A DNA stretch of 64,000 bases from a virus. Each line of letters begins with the position of its first letter. The stretch's first letter is position 1. The stretch lies in IMG/VR virus record IMGVR_UViG_3300045988_007161, positions 29,437 to 93,436 of that record. One strand, written 5' to 3'. The position numbers were made by a program, and so were the translations under genes. The notes under the pieces are model-generated. The model was not told the DNA's origin, ran no database searches, and saw only the letters and a program-made list of their open reading frames with translations. This document shows positions 146 through 62,202 of this stretch, piece by piece.

Positions 146-522
146 ATGATTGAGCAAATAAATCAGTTAAAGCAAGGTTCCATTATTAGTGAGAGTTCTC
201 ACTATATTGTGAACAGAGTATCAGGCTCTAATGCTTGGCTTACTCATTTTGAAAGTGGTGAAGAGGTTCAGATAAGAAAGGTGTTGCAAATGCAGCAAAG
301 AATCTTATTACTGAGTTGGTTAATAACCCTGTACTTCCTTATGAGGAAGGTGAAGATAGAGTTCTTAGAGGCTATAAGATTCAATTTGAATCAAGAGATG
401 GCAGATATGATTGTGTAGATATGGATATTACTAAGACTGATAAAGAGTCAGGTATTAGACCAGTCAATATCAACACTATCAAGTGGCTTATATTCAATGG
501 TGTCAAGTACATTGTTGAGTAA
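146..522 (+). CDS. hypothetical protein with one reading-frame break (146-~279, then -1 frame to 522)
   Basis: ORFs 146..418 and 316..522 overlap. Protein-like sequence changes frame at aga-aag-g (275-281) and the tail of the first ORF is junk-like. One extra A in the A3 run would give ...EEVQIRK-GVANAAKNLITELVNNP... Confidence 0.45.
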
Positions 523-528
523 TCTTAT

Positions 529-569
529 AAGGAGGAGTAAGTTAATCACTTATTCCTCCTTAACTTTTT
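529..569 (+). terminator. rho-independent terminator
   Basis: 14-bp stem aaggaggagtaagt/acttattcctcctt (1 mismatch), 5-nt loop, then aacttttt. Confidence 0.7.
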
Positions 570-580
570 CCCATAATACC

Positions 581-613
581 TTGTGTATTACAATTAAATT
601 CCTTACCTTTGCA
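581..613 (+). promoter_or_regulatory. Bacteroidota-type promoter (TTG-N20-TACCTTTGCA) upstream of the vRNAP gene
   Basis: TTG at 581-583 and TACCTTTGCA at 604-613. Same motif and same 20-nt spacing as eight minus-strand copies. Confidence 0.6.
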
Positions 614-633
614 CAAATAATACTTTTAATTAT

Positions 634-3600
634 ATGAGTTGTTTAATTATAACACCAGAAATTAGAGAATTAGCTAAGAAGTTTCCTAATGAAACAGAGC
701 AATCAATACTTAACTTGGTTGGATTGTGGCAGGAAAAGAATAATAAGTCTATTGAGGATATTCCATTAGGTAGTGAACTCAATGATTTTATTAAGGAGCT
801 GAGAAGTAGTGAGGCTACTGAACAGCTTGATGAGGCACTTAGCAGTTCTTTTAATACTCCAAGGATTACTTCTGTTGAGGAGCAGCAGAAGGTGGACCTA
901 CTCTTTGACCCAAGAACAAGAAGAGATAGAGTGACACTTATTGCAAGACTCTTCAGTAATGAAGTTGATAATGACTTGCAGGAAATGACTGATTCTTTGA
1001 AGAGAAGAATTGATGATGCCAGTGGTGTGGAGAAGGAAGAATTACAGGCTGAGCTTAATAGCTTGGATAGATTCTCTGTTATAAAGAAATACACTCCTGC
1101 TGGTATATTCAAGAGAGTAGCTAACATCTTCAATTCTTATGTACAAGATACAGAAGAGGGCAGAATACAGCAAGAACTTAATGCAATCAATTCTAGGAAA
1201 GGTGCAGATAAGTTCTCTGATGAGCAGAAATTAGAATCTGCCAAGAAGAAAGCTGCTTATAAGAATCAGGAGTATAAGAAGATAGTTGATGACCCTTATG
1301 TCTATAAGGCTCTTGCTGAGGAAGCAAGTACTTTACTTGTAATGACTGAGGGTATTAGGATAGACCCCAACTACATTGCACCTGCTGATGCAAACCTCAA
1401 TGATGATGACCCTGATGGTAACAGTGAGGTAGATAATGAAGCAGAGGACTGGAGACAAGAAGAGGCTTATAAGGATGGATGGATGACTAATTTCAGACAG
1501 GTAAGTTCACATGAGTCTCTATCACAGGCTGTGAGAAAAGTAATCAGGAAAGTACCTAAACTTGACTATAGAGGCAAGTATGAAAAGGATGATTTAGGTT
1601 TCACAAGATACCTTGATGCTGACTATGTTCATGCTACTTTCATTGACAAGTTAAGGAACATGATTAATTCTGATGATATGCTTCCTTTGATGCAGGATTT
1701 GCAAAGAATCAAGCCTTGGGTTAAGCAAGTAACCAAGTTACTTCAAGGTAATGAGACTTTGTTCTCTCAGTTCTATCAAGACTTCAGAAAGGATTTCATG
1801 CCTTACTGGATTCAAAAGAAGAAGATGATGACTGATGGTACTTTCAAGATGGAAACTATTGCCATCAACAAGCCTGAAGGTGTGTACTATCTGCTTGATG
1901 CTTGGAGAGATAACTATGAGAAGGGAGTACAGCTTGATGATGATAGTGTATATGAGAAGAATGGGGAAATAAACAAGGATAATGCAGCTAAAGGTTTACA
2001 ATGGACTGAGACATTGAACAATATGTTCCAGAACCTTGATACAGAATCCAGACTTCAACTCTTGGAGAGAGGAGATGTATGGAGTACCATAATGAAGTTG
2101 CTTCATATGTTAGGTATTGATGCCAATCCTTCTGTATTAAAGACTGCATTAACTGATATAAAGACAGCTCCAGGTATCACATTTACTGACCCAATTATGC
2201 TTCTTTTACCACAATTGAATGTCATATTCAGTGGTATTAAGAAAGGTGAAGTCAAGTCTGAGACAAGGGAGGATGGTACTGAGAAGAGAGGAGACCTTAT
2301 CAATACTTTTGGCTCTGCTTACAATATGATTGCAAGTATGATGGCAGAAGTAACTGAGGATGCTATTGAAAGTAGTGTCAGAGAAAATGATAAGTCTTAC
2401 TATTCTCATGTTACTCCTAACTACTTAGGTAAACTTATTAAAAATCTCAAGAATGTTATGAATGACAAGGAGAGATTTGAGCAGTTTATGCAGACTGAGT
2501 TCAAGGATTATGAGTGGTTCTTTAAGGATGGTCATTGGAGAAATGACTGGCTAAGGCAACTTGCAGAGTCTGATGAATTAAGAAAAGGTCTTAACCATAA
2601 AGCAGTGTTGAACTCTGATAAGGTAGACTATACTAATTGGGATGATTTGGATTATACTTTGGCTCTTCTTACAGAATATTGGGGAGACCCTGATTCTGCA
2701 AAGTCAAGTATAAAGTATGCTTGGTATCATGTTCCTATTCTTTCAGATAGCCCTTCTGCTGAGTTTATCAGATTCAGAAAGTACACAACAGGTGATGTAC
2801 TTGATGAAAATGGTAAGAAGAGAACCTATGATGATGTTATCCTTGACAAGTTAGTAGACTTGGTTAATCAAGAGTATGACAGAATCATGCTGGTTAGGGA
2901 AAGAGATGAGGCTTATCAGAGTGGAGATAAGAGTGTAGAACCTATTGCCAACTATGATATTGTCAGAAAGAAAGATGGAAGTATAAAGAGTATGGGAGGT
3001 GCAGAATTTAAGTTCCTTCCTGCACTTAACAGCCTAAGATATGACAATGGAGAGACATTCATTGATAGGTTAAGCAGACTTAAATCCAAAGGTACTGGTG
3101 CTGAACTTAGGAACTTCCTAAGAACTACTCTTAATGACATGATGGAAGATGGTTTTGAACAGACCTATAGAGATTGGATGAGGGCAGGACTTTTGGATGA
3201 GCTTCCTAATGGTAAGTACAAGTATCTTCCTTTTGAAGGTCAGTCCAAGCAGAATGCAATAACTGCAAAGGCACTTATCAAGGCTAAAGATGCCTTAGGT
3301 TCATTGTGGAATACCAATATGGAACTGATGCTTAGAGCCTATAACAATAATAGTGCTTTTGATAGTAGGGAAGCCAGTAGTCTGATGGAGCAAATCAAGG
3401 CATTACTCACAGATAAGGCAACAAGAGGTGAGATGGAGTTGAAAGATGCTCAGTCAATCTCAAGAAGCCTGTTTGTTAAGAACAATGCTAAGGATGCACT
3501 TAGGGAATACTATTGGAACAGTAAGTTAGCTACTTCACAAATTATCCAGCTTACTACTACTGACCTTGCCTTCTATAAGAACCTTGAGGACTTTCAGAAG

Positions 3601-6600: not shown

Positions 6601-7965
6601 GACACTCTAAGAGAAAGACTATTGTCAGCTCCTCTTCCTTTCTTACAGGCTTTCTATACTCTTGGCTTGCAGAAGACAGAAGAAATGTTAGGGTCTTATT
6701 TCCCTCAATATACTGAATCATTCAGGACTGTAATTGATGACCTTAGAGACATGACTAAGACTGGTAAGTTGAATGTAAAGACTATGAATAGTATTTATAA
6801 TGACTTGCTTGCCTATATCATGTCAAAGAATGGATTCTTTGGTTCTGAATTGATTGTAAACCCTGACTCAGAAGTAGGTGATATTATTGTAACTTCCTCT
6901 GATAAGAGAAAGGATTTCATCAATAACTTCCCTGAATACTTCAAGAGAGTGGTTGCAGATAATGAGGATATAGCTGACCTTGAATTTATTAAGAGACTCA
7001 AGGTAATCAGGGCAAATGACAGTAATCCTGTAGACCCAGTAGTGTTTAAGAATGTAGGTCAGTTAAGTCCTACTTTGAGAGAAAGATATATGAGGGATTG
7101 GGCATCTCTATTATATATGAATAACCCAGAAGCTCAGAAACTTGCTCTTAATCTATTCAGATATAGCTATTATAGAAATGGCTTTGCATTTGGACCTTCA
7201 ACCTTCATCCATTTGGCACCTGTGGCAGTGAGAAATGCTATCCCAGAGTACATAAGTACATTGAGAACTCTCTTGTCATCAAGTGATGATTATAGTCAAT
7301 TTGTAGACCAATATGTCTATAACCACTTGGATAACAGAAAGTTGGTTCCTGAAATCCCTGATACAGCCTCTGTCCAGTTCATAGGAGAGGATAATGAAGT
7401 TAAGGATGAAGTTACATTTGTGATTGATGATAATGCTACCTTTGGAGATAAGAAAGTTATCAAGAAAAGGATAGATACTCCTGATGGTCCTGCTTATGAC
7501 TTCTTTAGGTATATAGGTAAGAGAATTAGAGGAAACTATGTCTATTACAAACTAACTTCATTAGGTACTGAACAAACTAATGTTGCAACCTATGAAAGGA
7601 TTGAACCATTAGGTTTCAGAAACAGCTTTATTGAATATGAATATGGCAAGGATGTGGAAGAGATGGAAACTGTAATTGATAAGAACAGGAAAGATTATGA
7701 CCCTTATGCAGATACATTGTCAAGATTTGACCTTGGAGATGCTGAGGTTGATTATGACTCTATGCCTGATTATCAAGATATGCCTCAAGAGTATTGGGAT
7801 TCTATTCCAGAAGTAGATACTGATGCTTTCCAACAGGTATATGGTACTCCTCTTGATACTTCAGCTCCTAAGGCTGATGATGTAACAGCTATTCAGCCTA
7901 ATACAGAGTATAAGGATGAGAATGGTGATAGTATTTGTGGTGCTCCAACATTATATAGTTTATAA
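634..7965 (+). CDS. virion-packaged DNA-dependent RNA polymerase (crAss-like vRNAP, 2443 aa)
   Basis: Giant uninterrupted ORF with ...LSGSDFDVDKMYIMLPEF... (DFDVD at 5164-5178). This matches the DxDxD catalytic loop of crAss-like single-chain double-psi-beta-barrel RNAPs. Confidence 0.8.
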   Translation: MSCLIITPEIRELAKKFPNETEQSILNLVGLWQEKNNKSIEDIPLGSELNDFIKELRSSEATEQLDEALSSSFNTPRITSVEEQQKVDLLFDPRTRRDRVTLIARLFSNEVDNDLQEMTDSLKRRIDDASGVEKEELQAELNSLDRFSVIKKYTPAGIFKRVANIFNSYVQDTEEGRIQQELNAINSRKGADKFSDEQKLESAKKKAAYKNQEYKKIVDDPYVYKALAEEASTLLVMTEGIRIDPNYIAPADANLNDDDPDGNSEVDNEAEDWRQEEAYKDGWMTNFRQVSSHESLSQAVRKVIRKVPKLDYRGKYEKDDLGFTRYLDADYVHATFIDKLRNMINSDDMLPLMQDLQRIKPWVKQVTKLLQGNETLFSQFYQDFRKDFMPYWIQKKKMMTDGTFKMETIAINKPEGVYYLLDAWRDNYEKGVQLDDDSVYEKNGEINKDNAAKGLQWTETLNNMFQNLDTESRLQLLERGDVWSTIMKLLHMLGIDANPSVLKTALTDIKTAPGITFTDPIMLLLPQLNVIFSGIKKGEVKSETREDGTEKRGDLINTFGSAYNMIASMMAEVTEDAIESSVRENDKSYYSHVTPNYLGKLIKNLKNVMNDKERFEQFMQTEFKDYEWFFKDGHWRNDWLRQLAESDELRKGLNHKAVLNSDKVDYTNWDDLDYTLALLTEYWGDPDSAKSSIKYAWYHVPILSDSPSAEFIRFRKYTTGDVLDENGKKRTYDDVILDKLVDLVNQEYDRIMLVRERDEAYQSGDKSVEPIANYDIVRKKDGSIKSMGGAEFKFLPALNSLRYDNGETFIDRLSRLKSKGTGAELRNFLRTTLNDMMEDGFEQTYRDWMRAGLLDELPNGKYKYLPFEGQSKQNAITAKALIKAKDALGSLWNTNMELMLRAYNNNSAFDSREASSLMEQIKALLTDKATRGEMELKDAQSISRSLFVKNNAKDALREYYWNSKLATSQIIQLTTTDLAFYKNLEDFQKRYKEVHAPALRLNTKATYKGERIGRDWERTIYLKDDEIVSSVLEDIKTVLDERVRRNEMTKIDRDNIISKFRNVNVADAQAYRSLSSYRAILGMSGQWTDDMEQAYNNFKNGDWNIKDFNIIWQTKKPYVYTQVNNNSGIEGHTGIKTPVQHKNSEFLLLAMYELIAGPLGRSGKLKAINKFMEDNQIDVVQFESTTKVGKQGVIDLNDVNTEADVIQRLKDTTGIGFGNENPNVVHKVSYEDYGIQTATPEHAIDAVQLVGTQIRKLITADISDDTIIEVNGKKMTKKEWLDLYNAINTENILQAFADVDKIFKDPKKVEEILLEEIRGNQRYGMDMMRACTLDENNNFNIPLFDPVQSQRVQTLLNSVIKSRITKQKIRGGALIQVSDYGLTDELHVVFKDKNGNLMSWESYSKKNKNATRENYEEYIKKAREEGSLAIAYLECYMPAYSREFYEPLMDPNTHQLDVTKLPEDLRKLIGYRVPTEDKYSMAPLYIKGFLPQQNGSAIMLPAEITTLSGSDFDVDKMYIMLPEFRVKKFDMRQAREDYARMNSLFNQVLSQFTHSQLAEDILNADTDDFKEWFKENKEKYRLAKPIISKVKYDFNKSPQENSLEARNNLLIDMMYGVLTNADTASKILNPGGFDYQKKSARIMTILNDSYEGDLAQALKDMGIELNKTVQKGGKSYPKSIASYLFDLDLDTLDKLAEKTKVKMDPLSPRTQVMLHQQNMTGAKLISIYANHNANHALMQHTQLALDEENGSFVLNGKRLTSLHDIMNGDKEFISKNNAGFLAASVDNVKDPVLAALNQNTFTADASMLLSRLGYNPIEIGLLMMQPIVQEITQTYFRESREGKGKDTIIDEVLDKYKEKAALNNDLTYDNYKNNSFYIEELADNIMLAKEAVTDRSQTSDFRKIEFYQKQVAVGYLFKRIMNSADALGQLVQATRSDTQGGAAGPTIADTELKMQKVKDLLDQIENNDKFPLKNANVILDGLLSDNPDTDTLRERLLSAPLPFLQAFYTLGLQKTEEMLGSYFPQYTESFRTVIDDLRDMTKTGKLNVKTMNSIYNDLLAYIMSKNGFFGSELIVNPDSEVGDIIVTSSDKRKDFINNFPEYFKRVVADNEDIADLEFIKRLKVIRANDSNPVDPVVFKNVGQLSPTLRERYMRDWASLLYMNNPEAQKLALNLFRYSYYRNGFAFGPSTFIHLAPVAVRNAIPEYISTLRTLLSSSDDYSQFVDQYVYNHLDNRKLVPEIPDTASVQFIGEDNEVKDEVTFVIDDNATFGDKKVIKKRIDTPDGPAYDFFRYIGKRIRGNYVYYKLTSLGTEQTNVATYERIEPLGFRNSFIEYEYGKDVEEMETVIDKNRKDYDPYADTLSRFDLGDAEVDYDSMPDYQDMPQEYWDSIPEVDTDAFQQVYGTPLDTSAPKADDVTAIQPNTEYKDENGDSICGAPTLYSL

Positions 7966-29504: not shown

Positions 29505-30212
29505 TTATTGTAATTTAATGTATTCCTTATTACCAAGAGATGAGAATCCATTATTAAACTCACTTGTCCTTTGTATGAGTGTATTCCACATTCTTGATAT
29601 ACTCTCCATCTCAGACTGTGATGGAATAGTAAATTCACTCTGCAATTGCCCAGCTAACCAAGCATATTGTTGCTGAGCATTCTGTAATACAGCAGGGGCA
29701 ATCTTACCCATATCAAATAGAATAGTAAATGCTTCTCTCTTGATATATGCTTCAAGAGCCTTCAGGAATACAGGGTTATCAATAAGTAGTGGAAATCCAT
29801 CCTTATCTACTGGGATTGCCTTATAGGACACTGATACATCTCCTGTCTTGAAGGATACATATAATACTTGTCCTTGTGTCTTGAATGTCAGTTCCTGAGG
29901 AACTTTGTACCCTACATTCTTGTCATAGTGTTCTCTTGGCATGAAATTATCTGTCATGTATCTTAGGCATACACCTGACTTACACTCCTTAATCTGATTG
30001 ATAGATATAAGGTCACAGGGTAACTTGGCTCTGAACTCTTCTATATGTACTATCTCCTCCTTATCTTGGTACAACTTTGGCATTCCAAATATACCAATAA
30101 AGTCAAGGGTGTATTGTACTGCTGACTCAAGGGTTACATCTTGAAGTAATGGATGCCTCATTACTCTACTTAGAGCTTCTCTTATGTTTATATAGTTATA
30201 TTCCTTTACCAT
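29505..30212 (-). CDS. structural-module protein (235 aa), function unknown
   Basis: ORF in the structural operon. Confidence 0.5.
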   Translation of the reverse strand: MVKEYNYINIREALSRVMRHPLLQDVTLESAVQYTLDFIGIFGMPKLYQDKEEIVHIEEFRAKLPCDLISINQIKECKSGVCLRYMTDNFMPREHYDKNVGYKVPQELTFKTQGQVLYVSFKTGDVSVSYKAIPVDKDGFPLLIDNPVFLKALEAYIKREAFTILFDMGKIAPAVLQNAQQQYAWLAGQLQSEFTIPSQSEMESISRMWNTLIQRTSEFNNGFSSLGNKEYIKLQ

Positions 30213-54136: not shown

Positions 54137-54150
54137 ATTATCTAAATTAG

Positions 54151-54237
54151 TTGCGGAGGGTGGACTCGAACCACCAACACAGTATTACTGCTTCTCAAGG
54201 TTATGAGCCTTGCATGTTTCCATTACACTACCCCACG
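54151..54237 (-). tRNA. tRNA with CAU anticodon, C1-A72 mismatch, A73 and a 20-nt class-II-type variable arm (87 nt)
   Basis: CGUGGGG-UA-GUGU-AAUGGAA-ACAU-G-CAAGG-CUCAUAA-CCUUG-AGAAGCAGUAAUACUGUGUU-GGUGG-UUCGAGU-CCACC-CUCCGCA-A. Confidence 0.7.
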
Positions 54238-54248
54238 ATGTATATTTG

Positions 54249-54320
54249 AGCAGATAGTGGGAATCGAACCCACACATTAACATTGGAAGTGTTACATACT
54301 AACCTTTATACTATACCTGC
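54249..54320 (-). tRNA. tRNA-Gly(UCC)
   Basis: Hand-folded cloverleaf: acceptor GCAGGUA/UAUCUGC, anticodon loop CUUCCAA, T-loop UUCGAUU, U73. Confidence 0.85.
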
Positions 54321-54325
54321 ATTTG

Positions 54326-54398
54326 AGTAGATAATCAGATTTGAACTGACCCCTTGACATTGGCAATGTCATATGCTAACCACTAACACCATACCTAC
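54326..54398 (-). tRNA. tRNA-Gly(GCC)
   Basis: Acceptor GUAGGUA/UAUCUAC, anticodon loop UUGCCAA, T-loop UUCAAAU, U73. Confidence 0.85.
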
Positions 54399-54404
54399 AT
54401 TATG

Positions 54405-54478
54405 AGCCTCCTGAAGGATTTGAACCCTCTCTTCCTGTTTACAAGACAGGCTTGCTAAACCATTAACACTAAGGAGGC
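54405..54478 (-). tRNA. tRNA-Thr(UGU)
   Basis: Acceptor GCCUCCU/AGGAGGC, anticodon loop CUUGUAA, T-loop UUCAAAU. Confidence 0.85.
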
Positions 54479-54481
54479 AAA

Positions 54482-54569
54482 TGGTACTCCCACTGGGAGT
54501 TGAACCCAGACAACCATTGCTGATTGACAGATTTTAAGTCTGTTGTGTCTACCATTCCACCATGAGAGC
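54482..54569 (-). tRNA. tRNA-Leu(UAA), class II, CCA encoded
   Basis: Acceptor GCUCUCA/UGGGAGU, anticodon loop CUUAAAA, 17-nt variable arm, ends A-CCA. Confidence 0.85.
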
Positions 54570-54577
54570 ATCTCTTG

Positions 54578-55024
54578 TCAATAAGGTCTTATATCACATA
54601 AGTGGAATAAGTAGTCATACTTATTGATATTCTGAATAAAGGTTTCACATTCAGATGTTATACCTTTATAAACAGTCTCTTGAGGAATCTTATCATAAAA
54701 TGCAAGAGTAGCAGACTTAACTTCACTAATAAAGTCAAAAGCATTCAGTGCATCACTCGGAGTTCCCTTGATAGCATTAGGTTGCATTTTACCAAGTATT
54801 CCCATATATCCTTCTGCAAGACCATCCTGATAATCATCCAAAATGTCCTTAAATTCATCAAGATATACATGAATATTCTTCTTAGGTGCTGCCCAATGCA
54901 AGTTCTTACACTTAGTCTTCCAACCTTCAAGTTGATTTAAGAAGTTAATAAAGAACTGAGAACCAGATACTTCTGTACTTCTGCTTGATTCCATTGGAGT
55001 AAATAGGCTATCTTCTTCAAACAT
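54578..55024 (-). CDS. Dps/ferritin-like four-helix-bundle protein (148 aa) embedded in the tRNA array
   Basis: FLNQLEGWKTKCKNLHWAAPKKNIHVYLDEFKDILDDYQDGLAEGYMGILG fits the Dps pattern (..HWnv.G..F..lH..lde.y.....D.iAER...LG). Has its own promoter. Confidence 0.45.
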   Translation of the reverse strand: MFEEDSLFTPMESSRSTEVSGSQFFINFLNQLEGWKTKCKNLHWAAPKKNIHVYLDEFKDILDDYQDGLAEGYMGILGKMQPNAIKGTPSDALNAFDFISEVKSATLAFYDKIPQETVYKGITSECETFIQNINKYDYLFHLCDIRPY

Positions 55025-55042
55025 ATTCTCTTATTTTGATGT

Positions 55043-55075
55043 TGCAAAGTTAAGCAAAATAATTGGAACTACCAA
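55043..55075 (-). promoter_or_regulatory. Bacteroidota-type promoter (TTG-N20-TAACTTTGCA) for the Dps-like gene
   Basis: Minus-strand TAACTTTGCA at 55043-55052 and TTG at 55073-55075. Confidence 0.55.
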
Positions 55076-55108
55076 ATGTTTTCCTAATTACTTTCAAATT
55101 ATTTTTAG

Positions 55109-55197
55109 TACCCTCTAAGAGACTCGAACTCTTACACTACTATTACTTCATACTGGAGCCTAAATCCAGCGTGTCTACCAAATTCCACCAAGAGGGC
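55109..55197 (-). tRNA. tRNA-Leu(UAG), class II
   Basis: Acceptor GCCCUCU/AGAGGGU, anticodon loop UUUAGGC (G37), long variable arm. Confidence 0.85.
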
Positions 55198-55205
55198 ATT
55201 ATAAG

Positions 55206-55291
55206 TACTCCTGAAGAGAGTCGAACTCTTAATCTTTATTCCAAGCCCTGACTTTTGAGGTCAGTGTGTATTCCAATTCCACCACAGGAGT
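55206..55291 (-). tRNA. tRNA-Leu(CAA), class II
   Basis: Acceptor ACUCCUG/CAGGAGU, anticodon loop CUCAAAA, long variable arm. Confidence 0.85.
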
Positions 55292-55297
55292 ATATAG

Positions 55298-55372
55298 TGG
55301 GTACTCAAAGAATCGAACTTTGTTCTAAGGATTTTCAGTCCTCCGCAATGTAACCATACCTGCCCAGCACCC
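55298..55372 (-). tRNA. tRNA-Phe(GAA)
   Basis: Acceptor GGGUGCU/AGUACCC, anticodon loop CUGAAAA, T-arm CAAAG-UUCGAUU-CUUUG. Position 8 is G. Confidence 0.8.
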
Positions 55373-55440
55373 ATAATGACTTATTTGTGTCTCTACCCAC
55401 ATCACCTTCCATAAGTCAAGGACAAAGATTTCTATTGAAG

Positions 55441-55523
55441 TGGGGCAGAAAGGAATCGAACCTTAAACAGCCTGAGGCAGTGGATTTACAGTCCACACTA
55501 ATTCACCACATTAAAGCTACCCC
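55441..55523 (-). tRNA. tRNA-Tyr(GUA), class II
   Basis: Acceptor GGGGUAG/CUGCCCC, anticodon arm GUGGA-CUGUAAA-UCCAC, 14-nt variable arm. Confidence 0.8.
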
Positions 55524-55559
55524 ATATAATATTTATTATTCACTCCAGCATCAAAGGAA

Positions 55560-55667
55560 CTATATTCCAACTGGAATAGTTCCTGTAGGTGTCCAAGCAT
55601 AAGTCTTAGCAGCTTGTCTAAAGTATGCCTTAGCACCTCTCTTAATTAATGAAATAACCTTTCTCAT
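55560..55667 (-). CDS. possible 35-aa basic peptide inside the tRNA array
   Basis: MRKVISLIKRGAKAYFRQAAKTYAWTPTGTIPVGI*. The listed 63-aa ORF overlaps tRNA-Lys, so only the internal Met is plausible. Ends in a strong hairpin (55556-55583). Confidence 0.2.
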   Translation of the reverse strand: MRKVISLIKRGAKAYFRQAAKTYAWTPTGTIPVGI

Positions 55668-55700
55668 AACATTAAAATTTGGAGTTAATAATATGTTATG

Positions 55701-55773
55701 TTCCCCCATAAGGAGTCGAACCTTACTCTCAGGATTAAAAGTCCAGAGCATCCACCATTAATGCTTTGGGGGA
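55701..55773 (-). tRNA. tRNA-Lys(UUU)
   Basis: Acceptor UCCCCCA/UGGGGGA, anticodon loop CUUUUAA, one U-U mismatch in the anticodon stem. Confidence 0.8.
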
Positions 55774-55795
55774 ATATTTGCCAAGGTTGAGGTTG

Positions 55796-55869
55796 TGCTC
55801 CCACAAGGACTTGAACCTTGAGTCCCCTGTTTAAGAGACAGGTGCTTTAACCAATTCAGCTATAGGAGC
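55796..55869 (-). tRNA. tRNA-Lys(CUU)
   Basis: Acceptor GCUCCUA/UGGGAGC, anticodon loop CUCUUAA. Confidence 0.85.
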
Positions 55870-55877
55870 TTATTAAG

Positions 55878-55951
55878 ACTTGGAGGTGGGACTTGAACCC
55901 ACGAATCATCAGATTTGTAGTCTGTGCCATTAGCCACTCTGGTACTCCAAG
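55878..55951 (-). tRNA. tRNA-Cys-like with anticodon ACA (A34) and U73
   Basis: Perfect acceptor CUUGGAG/CUCCAAG, perfect T-arm GUGGG-UUCAAGU-CCCAC, anticodon loop CUACAAA. Confidence 0.7.
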
Positions 55952-55955
55952 ATAG

Positions 55956-56032
55956 TACTGGCAGAGGGGATTGAACCCACATGCAACCTATTACCCTTTC
56001 TACTGTGTATAAGACAGAGGGGATATGCCAGT
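55956..56032 (-). tRNA. non-canonical tRNA-Ile-like (UAU): anticodon hairpin sits where the D-arm should be and a D-loop-like GG hairpin lies 3' of it
   Basis: ACUGGCA-UA-UCCCC-UCUGU-CUUAUAC-ACAGU-AGAAA-GGG-UAAUAGGUUGCAU-GUGGG-UUCAAUC-CCCUC-UGCCAGU-A. Confidence 0.6.
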
Positions 56033-56036
56033 ATAT

Positions 56037-56113
56037 TGGGGTGTTAGATGGGATTTGAACCCATACCCTCCTGATTCACAGTCAGGACTTCTAACCAATT
56101 AAAATACTAACAC
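56037..56113 (-). tRNA. tRNA-His(GUG), CCA encoded, no encoded G-1
   Basis: Acceptor GUGUUAG/CUAACAC, C73, CCA, anticodon loop CUGUGAA. The base 5' of G1 is U. Confidence 0.8.
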
Positions 56114-56115
56114 AG

Positions 56116-56187
56116 TGCTGATGGAAAGACTCGAACTTTCAACTACTGCCTTATGAGAGCAGCCTTCTACCATTGAAGTACATCAAC
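56116..56187 (-). tRNA. tRNA-Met(CAU), elongator-like (or Ile2 if lysidinylated)
   Basis: Acceptor GUUGAUG/CAUCAGC, anticodon loop CUCAUAA, canonical arms. Confidence 0.8.
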
Positions 56188-56208
56188 TAATACTCTTCTT
56201 GACCAATG

Positions 56209-56285
56209 TTGGGATGGTGAGAATTGAACTCACCTGTAACCAACTACTCTTTCAACTGCTTATCAGACAGAGGAGATACATCCCA
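56209..56285 (-). tRNA. non-canonical tRNA-Ile-like (GAU), paralogue of 55956-56032 with the same rearranged architecture
   Basis: UGGGAUG-UA-UCUCC-UCUGU-CUGAUAA-GCAGU-UGAAA-GAG-UAGUUGGUUACAG-GUGAG-UUCAAUU-CUCAC-CAUCCCA-A. Confidence 0.6.
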
Positions 56286-56291
56286 ATATAG

Positions 56292-56364
56292 CTGAGAAGG
56301 TAGGAATTGAACCCACAACTGCTGGTTTTGGAGACCAGTGTTCTACCAATTGAACTACTTCCCA
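56292..56364 (-). tRNA. tRNA-Trp(CCA)
   Basis: Acceptor UGGGAAG/CUUCUCA (G3-U70 wobble), G73, anticodon loop CUCCAAA. Confidence 0.85.
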
Positions 56365-56370
56365 ATTTAG

Positions 56371-56443
56371 TTGCAGGTAGTGGATTTGCACCACTGGTCT
56401 CCCCATTATGAGTGGGGCAAGATTACTACTTCTCCAACCTGCT
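56371..56443 (-). tRNA. tRNA with CAU anticodon, A1-A72 mismatch and an unusual T-loop UGCAAAU
   Basis: AGCAGGU/ACCUGCA acceptor with unpaired 1:72. Anticodon arm CCCCA-CUCAUAA-UGGGG. Confidence 0.7.
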
Positions 56444-56552
56444 AAAACATCAAATCATTGATTACTTCTCCTTATTGCACTCAGAGAACTTTCAGAAATG
56501 ATGGCATCAAGTATTGCAAGCTACTTGACTGAACCTCTTGCAAAAGTTCTTG

Positions 56553-56624
56553 CGGGACCTGTAGGACTCGAACCTACATCTGAGGGTTAACAGCCCACTG
56601 TTCTAACCTTTGAACTAAAGACCC
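56553..56624 (-). tRNA. tRNA-Asn(GUU)
   Basis: Acceptor GGGUCUU/AGGUCCC (one U-U), G73, anticodon loop CUGUUAA. Confidence 0.8.
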
Positions 56625-56632
56625 ATAACTTG

Positions 56633-56706
56633 TTGCTCCTATAGGAATTGAACCTATGACCTTTTCCTTGTAAGGGAACTATTCTAAACCACTGAACTAA
56701 GGAGCA
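56633..56706 (-). tRNA. tRNA-Val(UAC)
   Basis: Acceptor UGCUCCU/AGGAGCA, anticodon loop CUUACAA. Confidence 0.85.
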
Positions 56707-56792
56707 TTGATAGGGTAGTTTCTTTAACCTCTAACTACCCAAAAGAGGGTCCAAGCAAAAGCTCAACATTATGAAAACATGAAAACATAGTG

Positions 56793-56866
56793 TGGAGAAT
56801 GAGGGATTTGAACCCTGAACTCCTCCTTGCAAGGGAGGTGTGTTAGCCAATTACACCACAAACCCC
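56793..56866 (-). tRNA. tRNA-Cys(GCA), possibly degenerate
   Basis: Good anticodon arm CCUCC-CUUGCAA-GGAGG and D-arm, but the acceptor GGGGUUU/AUUCUCC has two U-U mismatches, there is a 3-nt 8-10 linker, and position 73 is A rather than U. Confidence 0.55.
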
Positions 56867-56871
56867 ATTAG

Positions 56872-56944
56872 TATAGTAGACAGGACTCGAACCTGCATCC
56901 TCTGCATCCCAAATGCAGTGCCCCACCAATTAGGCTACTACTAT
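56872..56944 (-). tRNA. tRNA-Pro(UGG)
   Basis: Acceptor AUAGUAG/CUACUAU, anticodon loop UUUGGGA (G37), A73. Confidence 0.85.
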
Positions 56945-56950
56945 ATATTG

Positions 56951-57036
56951 CGGAGAGCAGTGTACTTGAAACACATACCATTGCTGGTACAATCTGTTTA
57001 GCAGACAGTCCCTAAGACCTCTTAGGTTTACTCTCC
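56951..57036 (-). tRNA. tRNA-Ser(GCU), class II with an atypical D-arm (6-bp stem, 4-nt loop)
   Basis: GGAGAGU...CCUAAG-AGGU-CUUAGG...CUGU-CUGCUAA-ACAG...variable arm UACCA-GCAA-UGGUA...G73. Confidence 0.7.
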
Positions 57037-57075
57037 ATTTTCCTTCACCAATATGTCAAAGAACACCTATTATTG

Positions 57076-57160
57076 CGGAGAGATGAGGTCCCGACCCCCA
57101 AGCATTTTACTGCTCAATCTGTTTTCAAGACAGTTCCCAGTCCCACTGAGTTACCTCTCC
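57076..57160 (-). tRNA. tRNA-Ser(UGA), class II with an atypical D-arm (5-bp stem, 5-nt loop) and non-canonical T-loop GUCGGGA
   Basis: GGAGAGG...CUCAG-UGGGA-CUGGG...CUGU-CUUGAAA-ACAG...UGGGG-GUCGGGA-CCUCA-UCUCUCC-G. Confidence 0.7.
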
Positions 57161-57214
57161 ATTTGCCTACCTACCTCTGTAGGATAGGACTTTAGTAGAT
57201 TAAAAGTGGATTAG

Positions 57215-57287
57215 CAGGATGTGGGAGAATTGAACTCCAATCTCCTGATTGACAGTCAGGCACATTAACCACTATGCTACACACCCT
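57215..57287 (-). tRNA. tRNA-Asp(GUC); best fold has an 8-bp acceptor and 4-bp T-stem
   Basis: AGGGUGUG/CACAUCCU, G73, anticodon loop CUGUCAA, T-arm GGAG-UUCAAUU-CUCC. Confidence 0.75.
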
Positions 57288-57293
57288 AAGTTG

Positions 57294-57365
57294 TAGAGCT
57301 ATTGGGAATTGAACCCAAATTTCTGCCTTGAGAGGGCAGTTACCTAACCATTAGTAGATAGCTCC
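57294..57365 (-). tRNA. tRNA-Glu(CUC)
   Basis: Acceptor GGAGCUA/UAGCUCU, anticodon loop CUCUCAA. Confidence 0.85.
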
Positions 57366-57374
57366 ATTTATTTG

Positions 57375-57448
57375 TATTGGGTATGGGACTTGAACCCATA
57401 ATCTCCACATTGAAAGTGTGGTGACTTAACCACTTCATCTAACCCAAC
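57375..57448 (-). tRNA. tRNA-Glu(UUC)
   Basis: Acceptor GUUGGGU/ACCCAAU, anticodon loop CUUUCAA. Confidence 0.85.
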
Positions 57449-57454
57449 ATTTAG

Positions 57455-57526
57455 TACCCTCTATAGGAATCGAACCTATATTCTAAGTTTAGAAGACTCA
57501 TGTACTATCCATTGTACTAAGAGGGC
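57455..57526 (-). tRNA. tRNA-Arg(UCU)
   Basis: Acceptor GCCCUCU/AGAGGGU, anticodon loop CUUCUAA. Confidence 0.85.
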
Positions 57527-57544
57527 ATCTTCTCTATTACTTTG

Positions 57545-57617
57545 TTACCCCAATAAGACTCGAACTTATGTTACAGGAGCCAAAATCCCGTGTAATAACC
57601 AACTATACTATGGGGCA
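57545..57617 (-). tRNA. tRNA-Gln(UUG), first gene of the array
   Basis: Acceptor UGCCCCA/UGGGGUA, anticodon loop UUUUGGC. Confidence 0.85.
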
Positions 57618-58437: not shown

Positions 58438-58853
58438 TCAAGAGCTATGTTTATCTATATATGAAATCATTTCCTTCAAAATATCAATACTATCATTGAC
58501 ATTTCCAAGTGCTGCATTACACTTGTGACATAATAAAGCTCTTACTTTACCAGTTCTATGGTCATGGTCTACAGCAAGACTTCTTTGTTCATTACTTTGA
58601 TGTGTACCACATATAGCACAGCACCCTTCTTGCTGTTGGAACATCCTGTTGTATTCTTCTAAAGATATTCCATATTTGTTCCTAAGTCTTGAGTCCTTAG
58701 CATAATTAGAACCCTTAGACTTCTTAAATTTTACTGCTCTTTTAGAGGAACATTCTTTACAGTAACTTTATGACCACTTGATTTTATTCTATCAGTATAG
58801 AACTCAGTAATTGGCTTTACTTCTCCACAATCAACACATTTAATATATTCCAT
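58438..58853 (-). pseudogene. endonuclease VII-type HNH gene with a single frame break
   Basis: MEYIKCVDCGEVKPITEFYTDRIKSSGHK (from 58853), frame break at the A3 run 58767-58769, then SYCKECSSKRAVKFKKSKGSNYAKDSRLRNKYGISLEEYNRMFQQQEGCCAICG...DHDHRTGKVRALLCHKCNAALG. The ORF track shows only the last 68 aa. Confidence 0.7.
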
Positions 58854-61620: not shown

Positions 61621-61704
61621 GAATGTATAGCTTAATGGTAAAGCAGCGTAGTACCACTTCAAAACAATGAGAGCAAGATGTAGGTTCAACTCCTACTGCA
61701 TTCC
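61621..61704 (+). ncRNA. tRNA-like RNA with good acceptor, D- and T-arms but no foldable anticodon stem (34-nt central region containing CUUCAAA)
   Basis: GAAUGUA-UA-GCUU-AAUGGUA-AAGC-A-[GCGUAGUACCACUUCAAAACAAUGAGAGCAAGAU]-GUAGG-UUCAACU-CCUAC-UGCAUUC-C. Confidence 0.45.
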
Positions 61705-61787: not shown

Positions 61788-62172
61788 GGGGCATGATTGG
61801 TTTTGATTACTGATTATTTGGTAAGAGAACATGCAAAGACTGATGGAAAGACATCAAAACAATAACTGGCAATACTTCTTATAGAGTTGCTGCCTAAATA
61901 GGCTGAGTAGCACTTACTTGGAAACAGAAAGGTGCAAAATAAGAGGTTATGTTACAGACTGAGGATTCAGTAGTAGAAATACTTGCGCATATTAAATTAG
62001 CTTAAAGTGGCTATGCCTTTAAAAAGATTTCCCTGTTAGATTAAATAGGGTGGTGGAACTATTGTCATCCAGACAATCCCAGTGGGTAACTGACCACATT
62101 AAAAAGTAGTAAGCATGTGTAATTCTTTTATTAAAGGTTGGTAAGACAGGGGTTCGAGTCCCCTATGCTCCA
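61788..62172 (+). ncRNA. ssrA: tmRNA (one-piece, 385 nt) encoding tag GNTSYRVAA
   Basis: 5' GGGGCAUGAUUGGUUUUGA... 3' ...AGGGG-UUCGAGU-CCCCU-AUGCUCC-A. 7-bp acceptor with G3-U70 and A73. Tag frame GGC AAU ACU UCU UAU AGA GUU GCU GCC UAA at 61868-61897. Confidence 0.85.
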
Positions 62173-62202
62173 CAAAACAATCTTAGTATTAACTAAAAAA
62201 GT

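Follow-up and report, generated by a model that had tools for sequence, protein, structure and literature searches.

The stretch of DNA considered here, referred to as the window, comprises 64,000 nucleotides (nt) of the IMG/VR viral record IMGVR_UViG_3300045988_007161. It carries a gene for a one-piece transfer-messenger RNA (tmRNA, ssrA) of 385 nt, located at 61788-62172 on the + strand. The conclusion favoured here, at a probability of about 0.7, is that this gene encodes a functional tmRNA of Bacteroidota ancestry, which would act as an accessory beside the tRNA genes and provide extra ribosome rescue in crAss-like phages related to the Steigviridae and Asinivirinae, with Bacteroides hosts.

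The tmRNA gene and its predicted structure

An initial annotation of the window had identified the element as a tmRNA and proposed ARAGORN and the Rfam model RF00023 as checks, both of which were positive. The one tmRNA that ARAGORN calls in the window spans 61788-62173 (+); its tag is GNTSYRVAA, ending at a stop codon, and the tag-coding part is placed at gene nt 81-110 (61868-61897), the same frame that had been read before. RF00023 aligns along its whole length (model positions 1-374) to 61788-62175, scoring 60.6 bits (E 3.3e-21, whole window) compared with a gathering score of 47 bits. Judged by these matches, the window element is a real and intact tmRNA gene, far beyond a chance match. 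Its predicted features are as follows.

61788-61794 (+): acceptor stem, 5' strand GGGGCAU, pairing with 62165-62171; G3 of the G3.U pair is at 61790
61800-61834 (+): helix 2, 5' strand (H2a-d), pairing with 62113-62147 in the RNAalifold consensus
61841-61856 (+): hairpin UGAUG-GAAAGA-CAUCA, the remnant of pseudoknot 1 (PK1), predicted for the sequence alone and in the alignment
61868-61897 (+): tag frame GGC AAU ACU UCU UAU AGA GUU GCU GCC UAA, called by ARAGORN; resume codon GGC at 61868
61892-61903 (+): helix 5, GCC(U)-loop with the stop codon-(A)GGC, paired in 43-44 of 44 copies
61905-61935 (+): PK2, an H-type pseudoknot, from manual pair counts in 44 distinct copies
61905-09 / 61915-19 (+): PK2 stem S1, GAGUA/UACUU, from pair counts
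61910-14 / 61931-35 (+): PK2 stem S2, GCACU/GGUGC, from pair counts
61936-62027 (+): central variable cassette in place of PK3, absent from copies of 301-316 nt and replaced elsewhere
62028-62112 (+): 3' structured region at the PK4 position, including the hairpin GUGG/CCAC at 62082-85 / 62094-97
62113-62147 (+): helix 2, 3' strand, from the RNAalifold consensus and pair counts
62148-62164 (+): T-arm AGGGG-UUCGAGU-CCCCU, from the RF00023 alignment; basal pairs formed in 44/44 copies
62165-62172 (+): acceptor stem, 3' strand AUGCUCC, and discriminator A; CAA comes next and CCA is not encoded

The 7-bp acceptor helix, with its G3.U pair and discriminator A, reads exactly as had been claimed, GGGGCAU facing AUGCUCC. 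A T-arm with a loop of the GGUUCGANUCC type is present and an anticodon arm is absent, as also stated before; its place is occupied by the long helix 2, with 30 predicted pairs. The tag frame has no start codon and is entered at the resume codon; it ends in a hydrophobic residue followed by Ala-Ala, and its stop codon lies inside the loop of the GCC/GGC hairpin. Of the four pseudoknots in the canonical bacterial architecture (E. coli/Thermus type), which are typical of tmRNAs without being a requirement, PK2 is well supported by covariation, while at the position of PK1 there is a plain hairpin, with no second helix found in the window tmRNA by eye or by folding, and a spacer 12-17 nt shorter than in Bacteroidales. 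The PK4 region contains hairpins that covary among the 44 copies. Judged by these features, the window RNA has every sequence element needed for tmRNA action.

A phage family of tmRNA genes

The window DNA matches genomes of the Crassvirales, Steigviridae, subfamily Asinivirinae (cr85_1, IAS virus, Kehishuvirus and bajarodcaudo virus 1), the matches including portal and terminase genes, and the hosts of cultured relatives are Bacteroides intestinalis and B. cellulosilyticus. By these matches the window derives from a crAss-like phage with Steigviridae relatives; the description of the tmRNA as phage-borne stands. A search of IMG/VR with a 25-base pattern from the PK1/helix 2 region placed the tmRNA family in 51 viral contigs, most of them 90-100 kb, and in nearly all of these the gene is preceded by one or two tRNA-Arg genes.

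Three phages in GenBank carry the gene: cr106_1, cr128_1 and Kehishuvirus 'tikkala'. That of cr128_1 is unannotated and interrupted by an intron. The tmRNA of cr106_1 (Mahstovirus faecalis) is 302 nt long, scores 74.3 bits against RF00023, encodes the tag DNTYRVAA and is annotated at 29657-29960 as 'transfer-messenger RNA, SsrA' (MT774378/NC_055871). It shares with the window tmRNA its position after tRNA-Arg(CCU), its PK1 hairpin, PK2, helix 2 and T-arm, and 91% identity over 65% of the gene. It differs in lacking the central cassette of about 82 nt, in its resume codon GAC (Asp), in a tag one codon shorter, and in the presence of a TROVE/Ro60 gene 2.2 kb downstream, none having been found near the window tmRNA. 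GenBank thus already has a 91%-identical copy under a tmRNA annotation, and tmRNAs of phages are known more widely; the window tmRNA is a further member of an already known kind.

Base pairs were counted on the window's structure in the 44 usable sequences among 45 distinct copies extracted. The G3.U pair is invariant (44/44). In L029 and L049 the acceptor has changed twice in a compensatory way, at positions 6-7, from CAU/AUG to CUA/UAG. The two basal pairs of the T-arm occur as AU, GC or UA and as GC, AU or UA, and are paired in every copy. Compensatory changes in helix 2 are found at pairs 23-354, 26-351, 30-348 and 47-326 (gene numbering), which fall in H2b, H2c and H2d. In PK2, pair 121-129 of S1 is UA, CG or UG and pair 123-148 of S2 is GC, UA or AU, again with 44/44 paired. 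The 3' hairpin GUGG/CCAC becomes GUAG/CUAC and ACAG/CUGU through GC/AU and UA/CG compensatory changes, and the PK1 hairpin GAUG/CAUC becomes GUUG/CAAC in Kehishuvirus tikkala, also a compensatory change.

The initial annotation had let its case depend on conservation of the tag frame among related phages, and the frame is intact in 52/52 copies. Changes in tag length are always of whole codons, and synonymous changes occur (AAC/AAU, GCU/GCA), as do both UAA and UGA stops. Eleven variants are found: DNTYRVAA (22 copies), GNTYRAAA (11), GNTSYRVAA (11) and eight singletons. Tyr-Arg/Lys is present in each of the tags, three or four residues ahead of the stop, with a short, mainly hydrophobic end after it, which is Ala-Ala in 51 of the 52 copies and Val-Ala in one. 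The tag is therefore no oddity of one phage but a conserved family trait, three variants making up 44/52 copies. Its pattern is that of a tmRNA in use, unlike a relic. Invariance of G3.U, the compensatory changes and the kept tag frame together show that the gene is under selection, and by these comparisons the window tmRNA evolves under constraint on both structure and tag frame.

Some unusual genes were seen alongside the family. In the copy at L018:4370-4755(-) the tag is lengthened to AKSYRMTPALMAA and three stop codons come after it; about 80 nt are also inserted ahead of helix 5/PK2. Two contigs of 99-101 kb, a crAss-like size, carry a different short tmRNA-like gene (L204 about 7627-7930(-); L225 about 459-764(-)). 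Its resume context, GAUAACU followed at the resume point by GGCAAUAC, is the same as in the window, and its tag begins GNTSY (GNTSYVMDYTGIAA); ARAGORN calls it permuted, and nothing beyond the T-arm obviously pairs with its 5' GGGGAUG. Dozens of unrelated viral tmRNAs also emerged when viruses were scanned more widely for the 5' motif.

Relationship to bacterial ssrA

Host genes were sampled by searching representative bacterial genomes for the 5' motif, which gave at least 120 loci, mostly of Bacteroidota. On these genomes the features that the initial annotation had given for Bacteroidota, a 5' end GGGG[C/U]UGACUGGUUUUGAC and tags of the GENNYALAA type, were borne out; ARAGORN gives GENNYALAA and close variants as the host tags among the loci listed. 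For donor comparison, 59 sampled bacterial tmRNAs picked by the 5' motif were compared with the window tmRNA by global and local identity. They are about 60-65% identical to it, which is near the floor for AT-rich RNA.

The window tmRNA nevertheless shares a set of features with Bacteroidota ssrA. Its first 19 nt are 89-95% identical to those of the Bacteroidota genes, the resume context UAACU/GGC (the slash marking the resume point) is common to both, and so is a tag format of nine residues with G1, Y5 and terminal AA. More generally, both are one-piece genes with a 5' GGGG.UGA.UGGUUUUGA, a GAUG...CAUCAAAA helix, a UAAGCAUGU core of helix 2, a resume context UAA(C/A)U/GGC and a gene end A followed by CAA, without CCA. 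The view of the window gene as a diverged Bacteroidota-type gene accordingly holds, on the shared 5' end, resume context and tag format, and an identity of 60-65% indicates that it diverged long ago and is not a recent capture. Naming a specific donor beyond 'Bacteroidota-type' was attempted and abandoned, because just the ends and the tag region align with the 59 sampled tmRNAs.

The differences lie in several parts of the molecule. In Bacteroidota, PK1 consists of two interlocked helices, AGAG...GAUG...CUCU...CAUC, whereas the phage keeps the second alone, as a hairpin; the phage tag consequently starts at nt 81, compared with 93-98 in the hosts. The central pseudoknots of the bacterial RNA are replaced in the phage gene by exchangeable cassettes, and the gene is about 385 nt long in the window compared with about 395-400 nt in Bacteroidota. 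Bacteroidota tags (for example GENNYALAA, GETNYALAA and GNNNFALAA) have Ala-Leu ahead of the terminal AA where the phage has Arg-Val. As stated in the initial annotation, the window tag differs from the host consensus GENNYALAA at 5/9 positions and has Arg at -4.

That CCA is not encoded, with A followed by CAA at the 3' end of the window gene, was also reported correctly; as a peculiarity it does not stand, since just 3/58 sampled bacterial ssrA genes of Bacteroidota type encode CCA. The A/CAA arrangement is the commonest 3' flank among the 58, and is found in the window and in 40/51 phage copies. Missing CCA was therefore discarded as a distinction between phage and host.

Shorter Bacteroidota ssrA genes (369-373 nt) were also encountered, in L105, L122 and L157, with the tags GDNYSYRLAA, GNDYNYAIAA and GNDYNYAFAA. 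L105 is a metagenome-assembled genome labelled Draconibacterium orientale, and the ...SYRLAA end of its tag means that Arg at -4 is not confined to the phage family.

Bacterial ssrA is a frequent integration target, and fragments of it occur in prophages (PMC9004378), which raises the question of whether the window element is a piece of a host gene serving as an attP-like site. This has next to no likelihood. The window copy is complete, including a 5' half and tag of its own, and its sequence has diverged; it lacks near-identity to any sampled host ssrA; and crAss-like phages are described as incapable of lysogeny (PMC8375218).

The variable centre, introns and a chimeric copy

Between PK2 and the 3' structures the family copies have a modular, exchangeable region. 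Those of 301-316 nt are without a central cassette, some copies have a cassette of the window type and others have unrelated sequence at the same place. A class of 439-450 nt has a longer centre; these copies are missed by ARAGORN and score 52.7-65.7 bits against RF00023.

The window cassette (61936-62027) is homologous to a stand-alone hairpin found downstream of TROVE/Ro60 in PhiCrAssBcn1 and L041. Hairpins of this type have a long stem and a large internal loop. The stand-alone form (L176:1479-1545; L041:1311-1343(-)) sits 100-130 nt downstream of the TROVE/Ro60 gene of crAss001-like phages, and between it and the cassette a core of 33-37 nt is about 94% identical, with outer and inner stems kept and covarying. 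Among the loci examined, contigs with the cassette inside the tmRNA had no TROVE gene.

Two further RNAs lie at the TROVE/Ro60 locus: a tRNA whose anticodon region contains an 82-nt insert (L176:1635-1778), and a conserved tRNA-like RNA of 137-139 nt (L176:1883-2021) of the form GGGGAUG...T-arm...CAUCCCC-A, whose T-stem covaries. RNAs downstream of TROVE are also present in L008, L012, L029, L041 and L043. The Y RNA families in Rfam gave no match in the TROVE-downstream region of PhiCrAssBcn1, a tRNA being the only hit. YrlA-type Y RNAs adjoin Ro60 genes in bacteria and phages (PMC4201824), and by analogy the two TROVE-downstream RNAs are probably of this type.

These likenesses suggest an alternative emphasis, in which the cassette would be a functional RNA module exchanged with the Ro60 (TROVE)/Y-RNA locus, and the tag may separately redirect rescued products. 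As an account of the gene this is improbable. Were the cassette a Ro60-binding Y-RNA element, a ribosome-rescue RNA would be fused to a tether for RNA quality control, giving a physical link between trans-translation and RNA decay mediated by Ro60 and exonuclease.

Seven copies are interrupted near the 3' end (cr128_1, L005, L014, L034, L037, L048 and L055), and the intron-interrupted copies are missed by ARAGORN. In the six that could be parsed, the interruption is a group I intron of 869-871 nt, placed in the T-loop after GGGUU and ending in G, with an Rfam RF00028 score of 86-88 bits. Its boundaries are canonical, a U preceding the first splice site and a G the second. The cr128_1 intron corresponds to L003:3431-4299 (MT774392), and contains an antisense open reading frame (ORF) of 186 aa (L003:3645-4205) with a zinc-finger match and an HNH-like C-terminal part. 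The seventh interrupted copy, L005 (1289 nt), has an unparsed junction, and Rfam gave no group I intron in it. Group I introns in the T-loop are also found in bacterial (clostridial) tmRNA genes. The interrupted family copies resemble these in the site of interruption; the window gene differs in being intronless.

The copy in tikkala, a phage cultured on B. cellulosilyticus (OQ198717, L004:3207-3509), is chimeric. Inside the T-loop it passes into the 3' end and flank of the 139-nt tRNA-like RNA, with loss of the acceptor pairing and of G3.U, and the TROVE gene usually found between the tmRNA and the tRNA-like RNA is deleted. GenBank has two hypothetical proteins annotated over the chimera.

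The dead tikkala chimera, the interrupted copies, the 301-316-nt deletion variants and the patchy distribution of the gene are what would be expected of a decaying passenger, a captured host gene that is unused and being lost. Such an origin is nonetheless very improbable for the window gene. Compensatory changes are found in at least seven helices, alongside the invariant G3.U and the tag frame kept in all copies, and the core is still preserved despite an old divergence from the hosts. Moreover, the deletions and the insertions in the RNA body are limited to the region known to be dispensable, and the intron is of a self-splicing type with canonical boundaries.

Proposed function

The preferred interpretation remains that of a functional tmRNA contributing to ribosome rescue. 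Its gene would be transcribed with the + strand gene block, and probably early, as judged by synteny: the TROVE gene is early in crAss001 (PMC10136315) and lies downstream of the tmRNA, in the same orientation, in cr106_1. The transcript would be processed by host RNase P and 3' trimming, receive CCA from the host CCA-adding enzyme, as host ssrA does, and be charged with alanine by the host alanyl-tRNA synthetase (AlaRS) through G3.U and A73. Bound by host SmpB, it would enter ribosomes stalled on broken or stop-less mRNAs, and translation would move to the GGC at 61868. The peptide A-GNTSYRVAA would then be appended, with termination at UAA and release of the ribosome. The ...VAA-COOH end is probably still a degradation signal. 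The benefit may be that additional rescue prevents a shortage of ribosomes during the cleavage of host and phage RNAs, whether by takeover or by host nuclease defences, a logic that would apply equally to the 25-plus tRNA genes of the phage.

Several results weigh against this interpretation. The RF00023 score is only 13.6 bits over threshold, the middle of the window tmRNA aligns poorly to the model, and PK1 is a 5-bp hairpin (61841-61856) rather than a pseudoknot. The tmRNA was not found in cr85_1 or bajarodcaudo virus 1, the nearest GenBank relatives, and crAss001-like phages are without it; this patchiness marks it as an accessory gene. Kehishuvirus tikkala is the sole cultured carrier, its copy being a dead chimera, and no intact copy was found in any cultured phage. 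Together with the patchy distribution, this points to a tmRNA that is dispensable, at least in culture.

A further difficulty is posed by SmpB. The query was E. coli SmpB, which is valid because it is 100% identical to annotated smpB genes, and it recovers SmpB in two bacterial loci. As the initial annotation had noted, the window has no SmpB-like frame (tblastn, E up to 10), and no SmpB was found at the same threshold in the related loci L001-L055; for the phage of the window itself, the search covered 64 kb of a genome of roughly 98 kb. Among 50,697 phage records tblastn gave 73 SmpB matches, and there was no crAss-like record among the 60 of these listed. Bacteroides phages are likewise absent from the organism tally of the matches shown, cr106_1 and cr128_1 being in the collection, while smpB is present in Lak megaphages of Prevotella and in the huge phages LR7565xx. 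With no smpB in the window, in the related loci or in any crAss-like record among the matches listed, the crAss-like tmRNA must use that of the host, and its function is wholly dependent on host SmpB accepting a diverged tRNA-like domain (TLD).

In E. coli a stable hairpin can stand in for PK1, and PK2-4 are replaceable (PMC3968760); the reductions seen in the phage are therefore compatible with function.

The same need to share host SmpB, together with the altered tag, has prompted consideration of an interfering role, the chief alternative. Here the phage tmRNA would compete for host SmpB, AlaRS and stalled ribosomes, either imposing a phage-specific tag (Tyr-Arg-Val-Ala-Ala) treated differently by proteases or adaptors of the host, or blunting a response that depends on trans-translation. 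The family tags consistently have Arg/Lys-Val/Ala/Ile/Met ahead of AA where the hosts have Ala-Leu, and in E. coli LAA is the signal for ClpX and ALA that for ClpA (PMC3968760). There is also a precedent in the TLD-only tmRNA of phage DS6A, a proposed inhibitor acting through SmpB titration (PMC4131195). On the other hand, the terminal Ala-Ala is retained, and the change from Leu to Val is conservative. A pure decoy would need no conserved frame, resume context or stop codon, all of which are conserved, and the existence of a bacterial ssrA ending in ...YRLAA means that Arg at -4 fits ordinary use. Interference is accordingly considered unlikely, although help and interference are inseparable from sequence alone; nor do the sequences tell apart rescue during takeover and re-routing of tagged proteins, the two possible benefits put forward in the initial annotation.

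Comparison with other phage tmRNAs

Phage-borne tmRNA genes have been described before. Complete ssrA genes are known in virulent mycobacteriophages (Bxz1 group) and in Bacillus phage G (PMC4131195), and tmRNA was found in 402/18,146 phage genomes, or 2.3% (PMC9004378). The mycobacteriophage and phage G genes resemble the present one in that the phages carrying them are virulent, have numerous tRNA genes and mostly lack smpB (PMC4131195, PMC9004378); going by their descriptions, they differ in being separate lineages, each from its own host phylum. In huge phages, tmRNA occurs together with SmpB (PMC7162821). The huge phages and Lak megaphages are comparable in carrying phage-borne parts of trans-translation in gut phages of Bacteroidota (Prevotella) hosts (PMC7162821), but they have their own SmpB (tblastn E 1e-12 to 1e-21), whereas the matches listed include no crAss-like record.

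Literature on tmRNA in crAss-like phages or Crassvirales yielded mentions in methods alone; no paper discussing these genes was found in the library searched, and a 2023 review of the Crassvirales has no mention of tmRNA. The crAss-like phages are the most abundant human gut phages, and their management of host translation is poorly known. If the preferred interpretation holds, part of the group invests in ribosome rescue besides decoding, relying on host SmpB. The family also amounts to a natural experiment on the dispensable parts of tmRNA, with PK1 cut to a hairpin, central pseudoknots that are missing or exchanged, and a T-loop split by an intron.

Genomic setting

The tmRNA lies 2-3 kb inside a + strand gene block that begins near 59-60 kb, where the sign of the GC skew also switches. 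Its neighbours include the following genes.

54150-57617 (-): tRNA block, 24 genes called by ARAGORN and one by Rfam only (54405-54478), covering most amino acids
61234-61307 (+): tRNA-Arg(CCU), called by ARAGORN; precedes the tmRNA as a marker of synteny in nearly all relatives
61621-61704 (+): tRNA-like gene 83 nt ahead of the tmRNA, its anticodon region enlarged and aberrant; Rfam tRNA score 47.4 bits

A sigma-70 promoter scan around the tmRNA gave fewer promoter-like sites than in shuffled sequences, and an intrinsic terminator scan found none around the gene; as the promoters of Bacteroides and of crAss phages belong to other types, these scans are uninformative.

The tRNA-like gene at 61621-61704 has a normal acceptor, D-arm and T-arm, with a 25-nt insert in the Rfam tRNA alignment, and is not called by ARAGORN at default settings. 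Its position is kept in related contigs. The near-identical genes of L005, L018 and L023 receive the call tRNA-Trp(CCA), of 86 nt, and the counterpart of the cr106_1 type as tRNA-Ile(GAU) of 88 nt; the acceptor stem covaries. The intron mode of ARAGORN offered a tRNA-Leu with a 6-nt 'intron' for the window gene, a reading that was unconvincing and was rejected.

None of the tRNA genes of the phage encodes CCA. One gene of the 54150-57617 block is called as tRNA-Cys with the unusual anticodon ACA. Between this block and the tmRNA region lies an ORF of 68 aa, at 58438-58644 (-), that matches recombination endonuclease VII (Pfam PF02945, E 5.5e-22).

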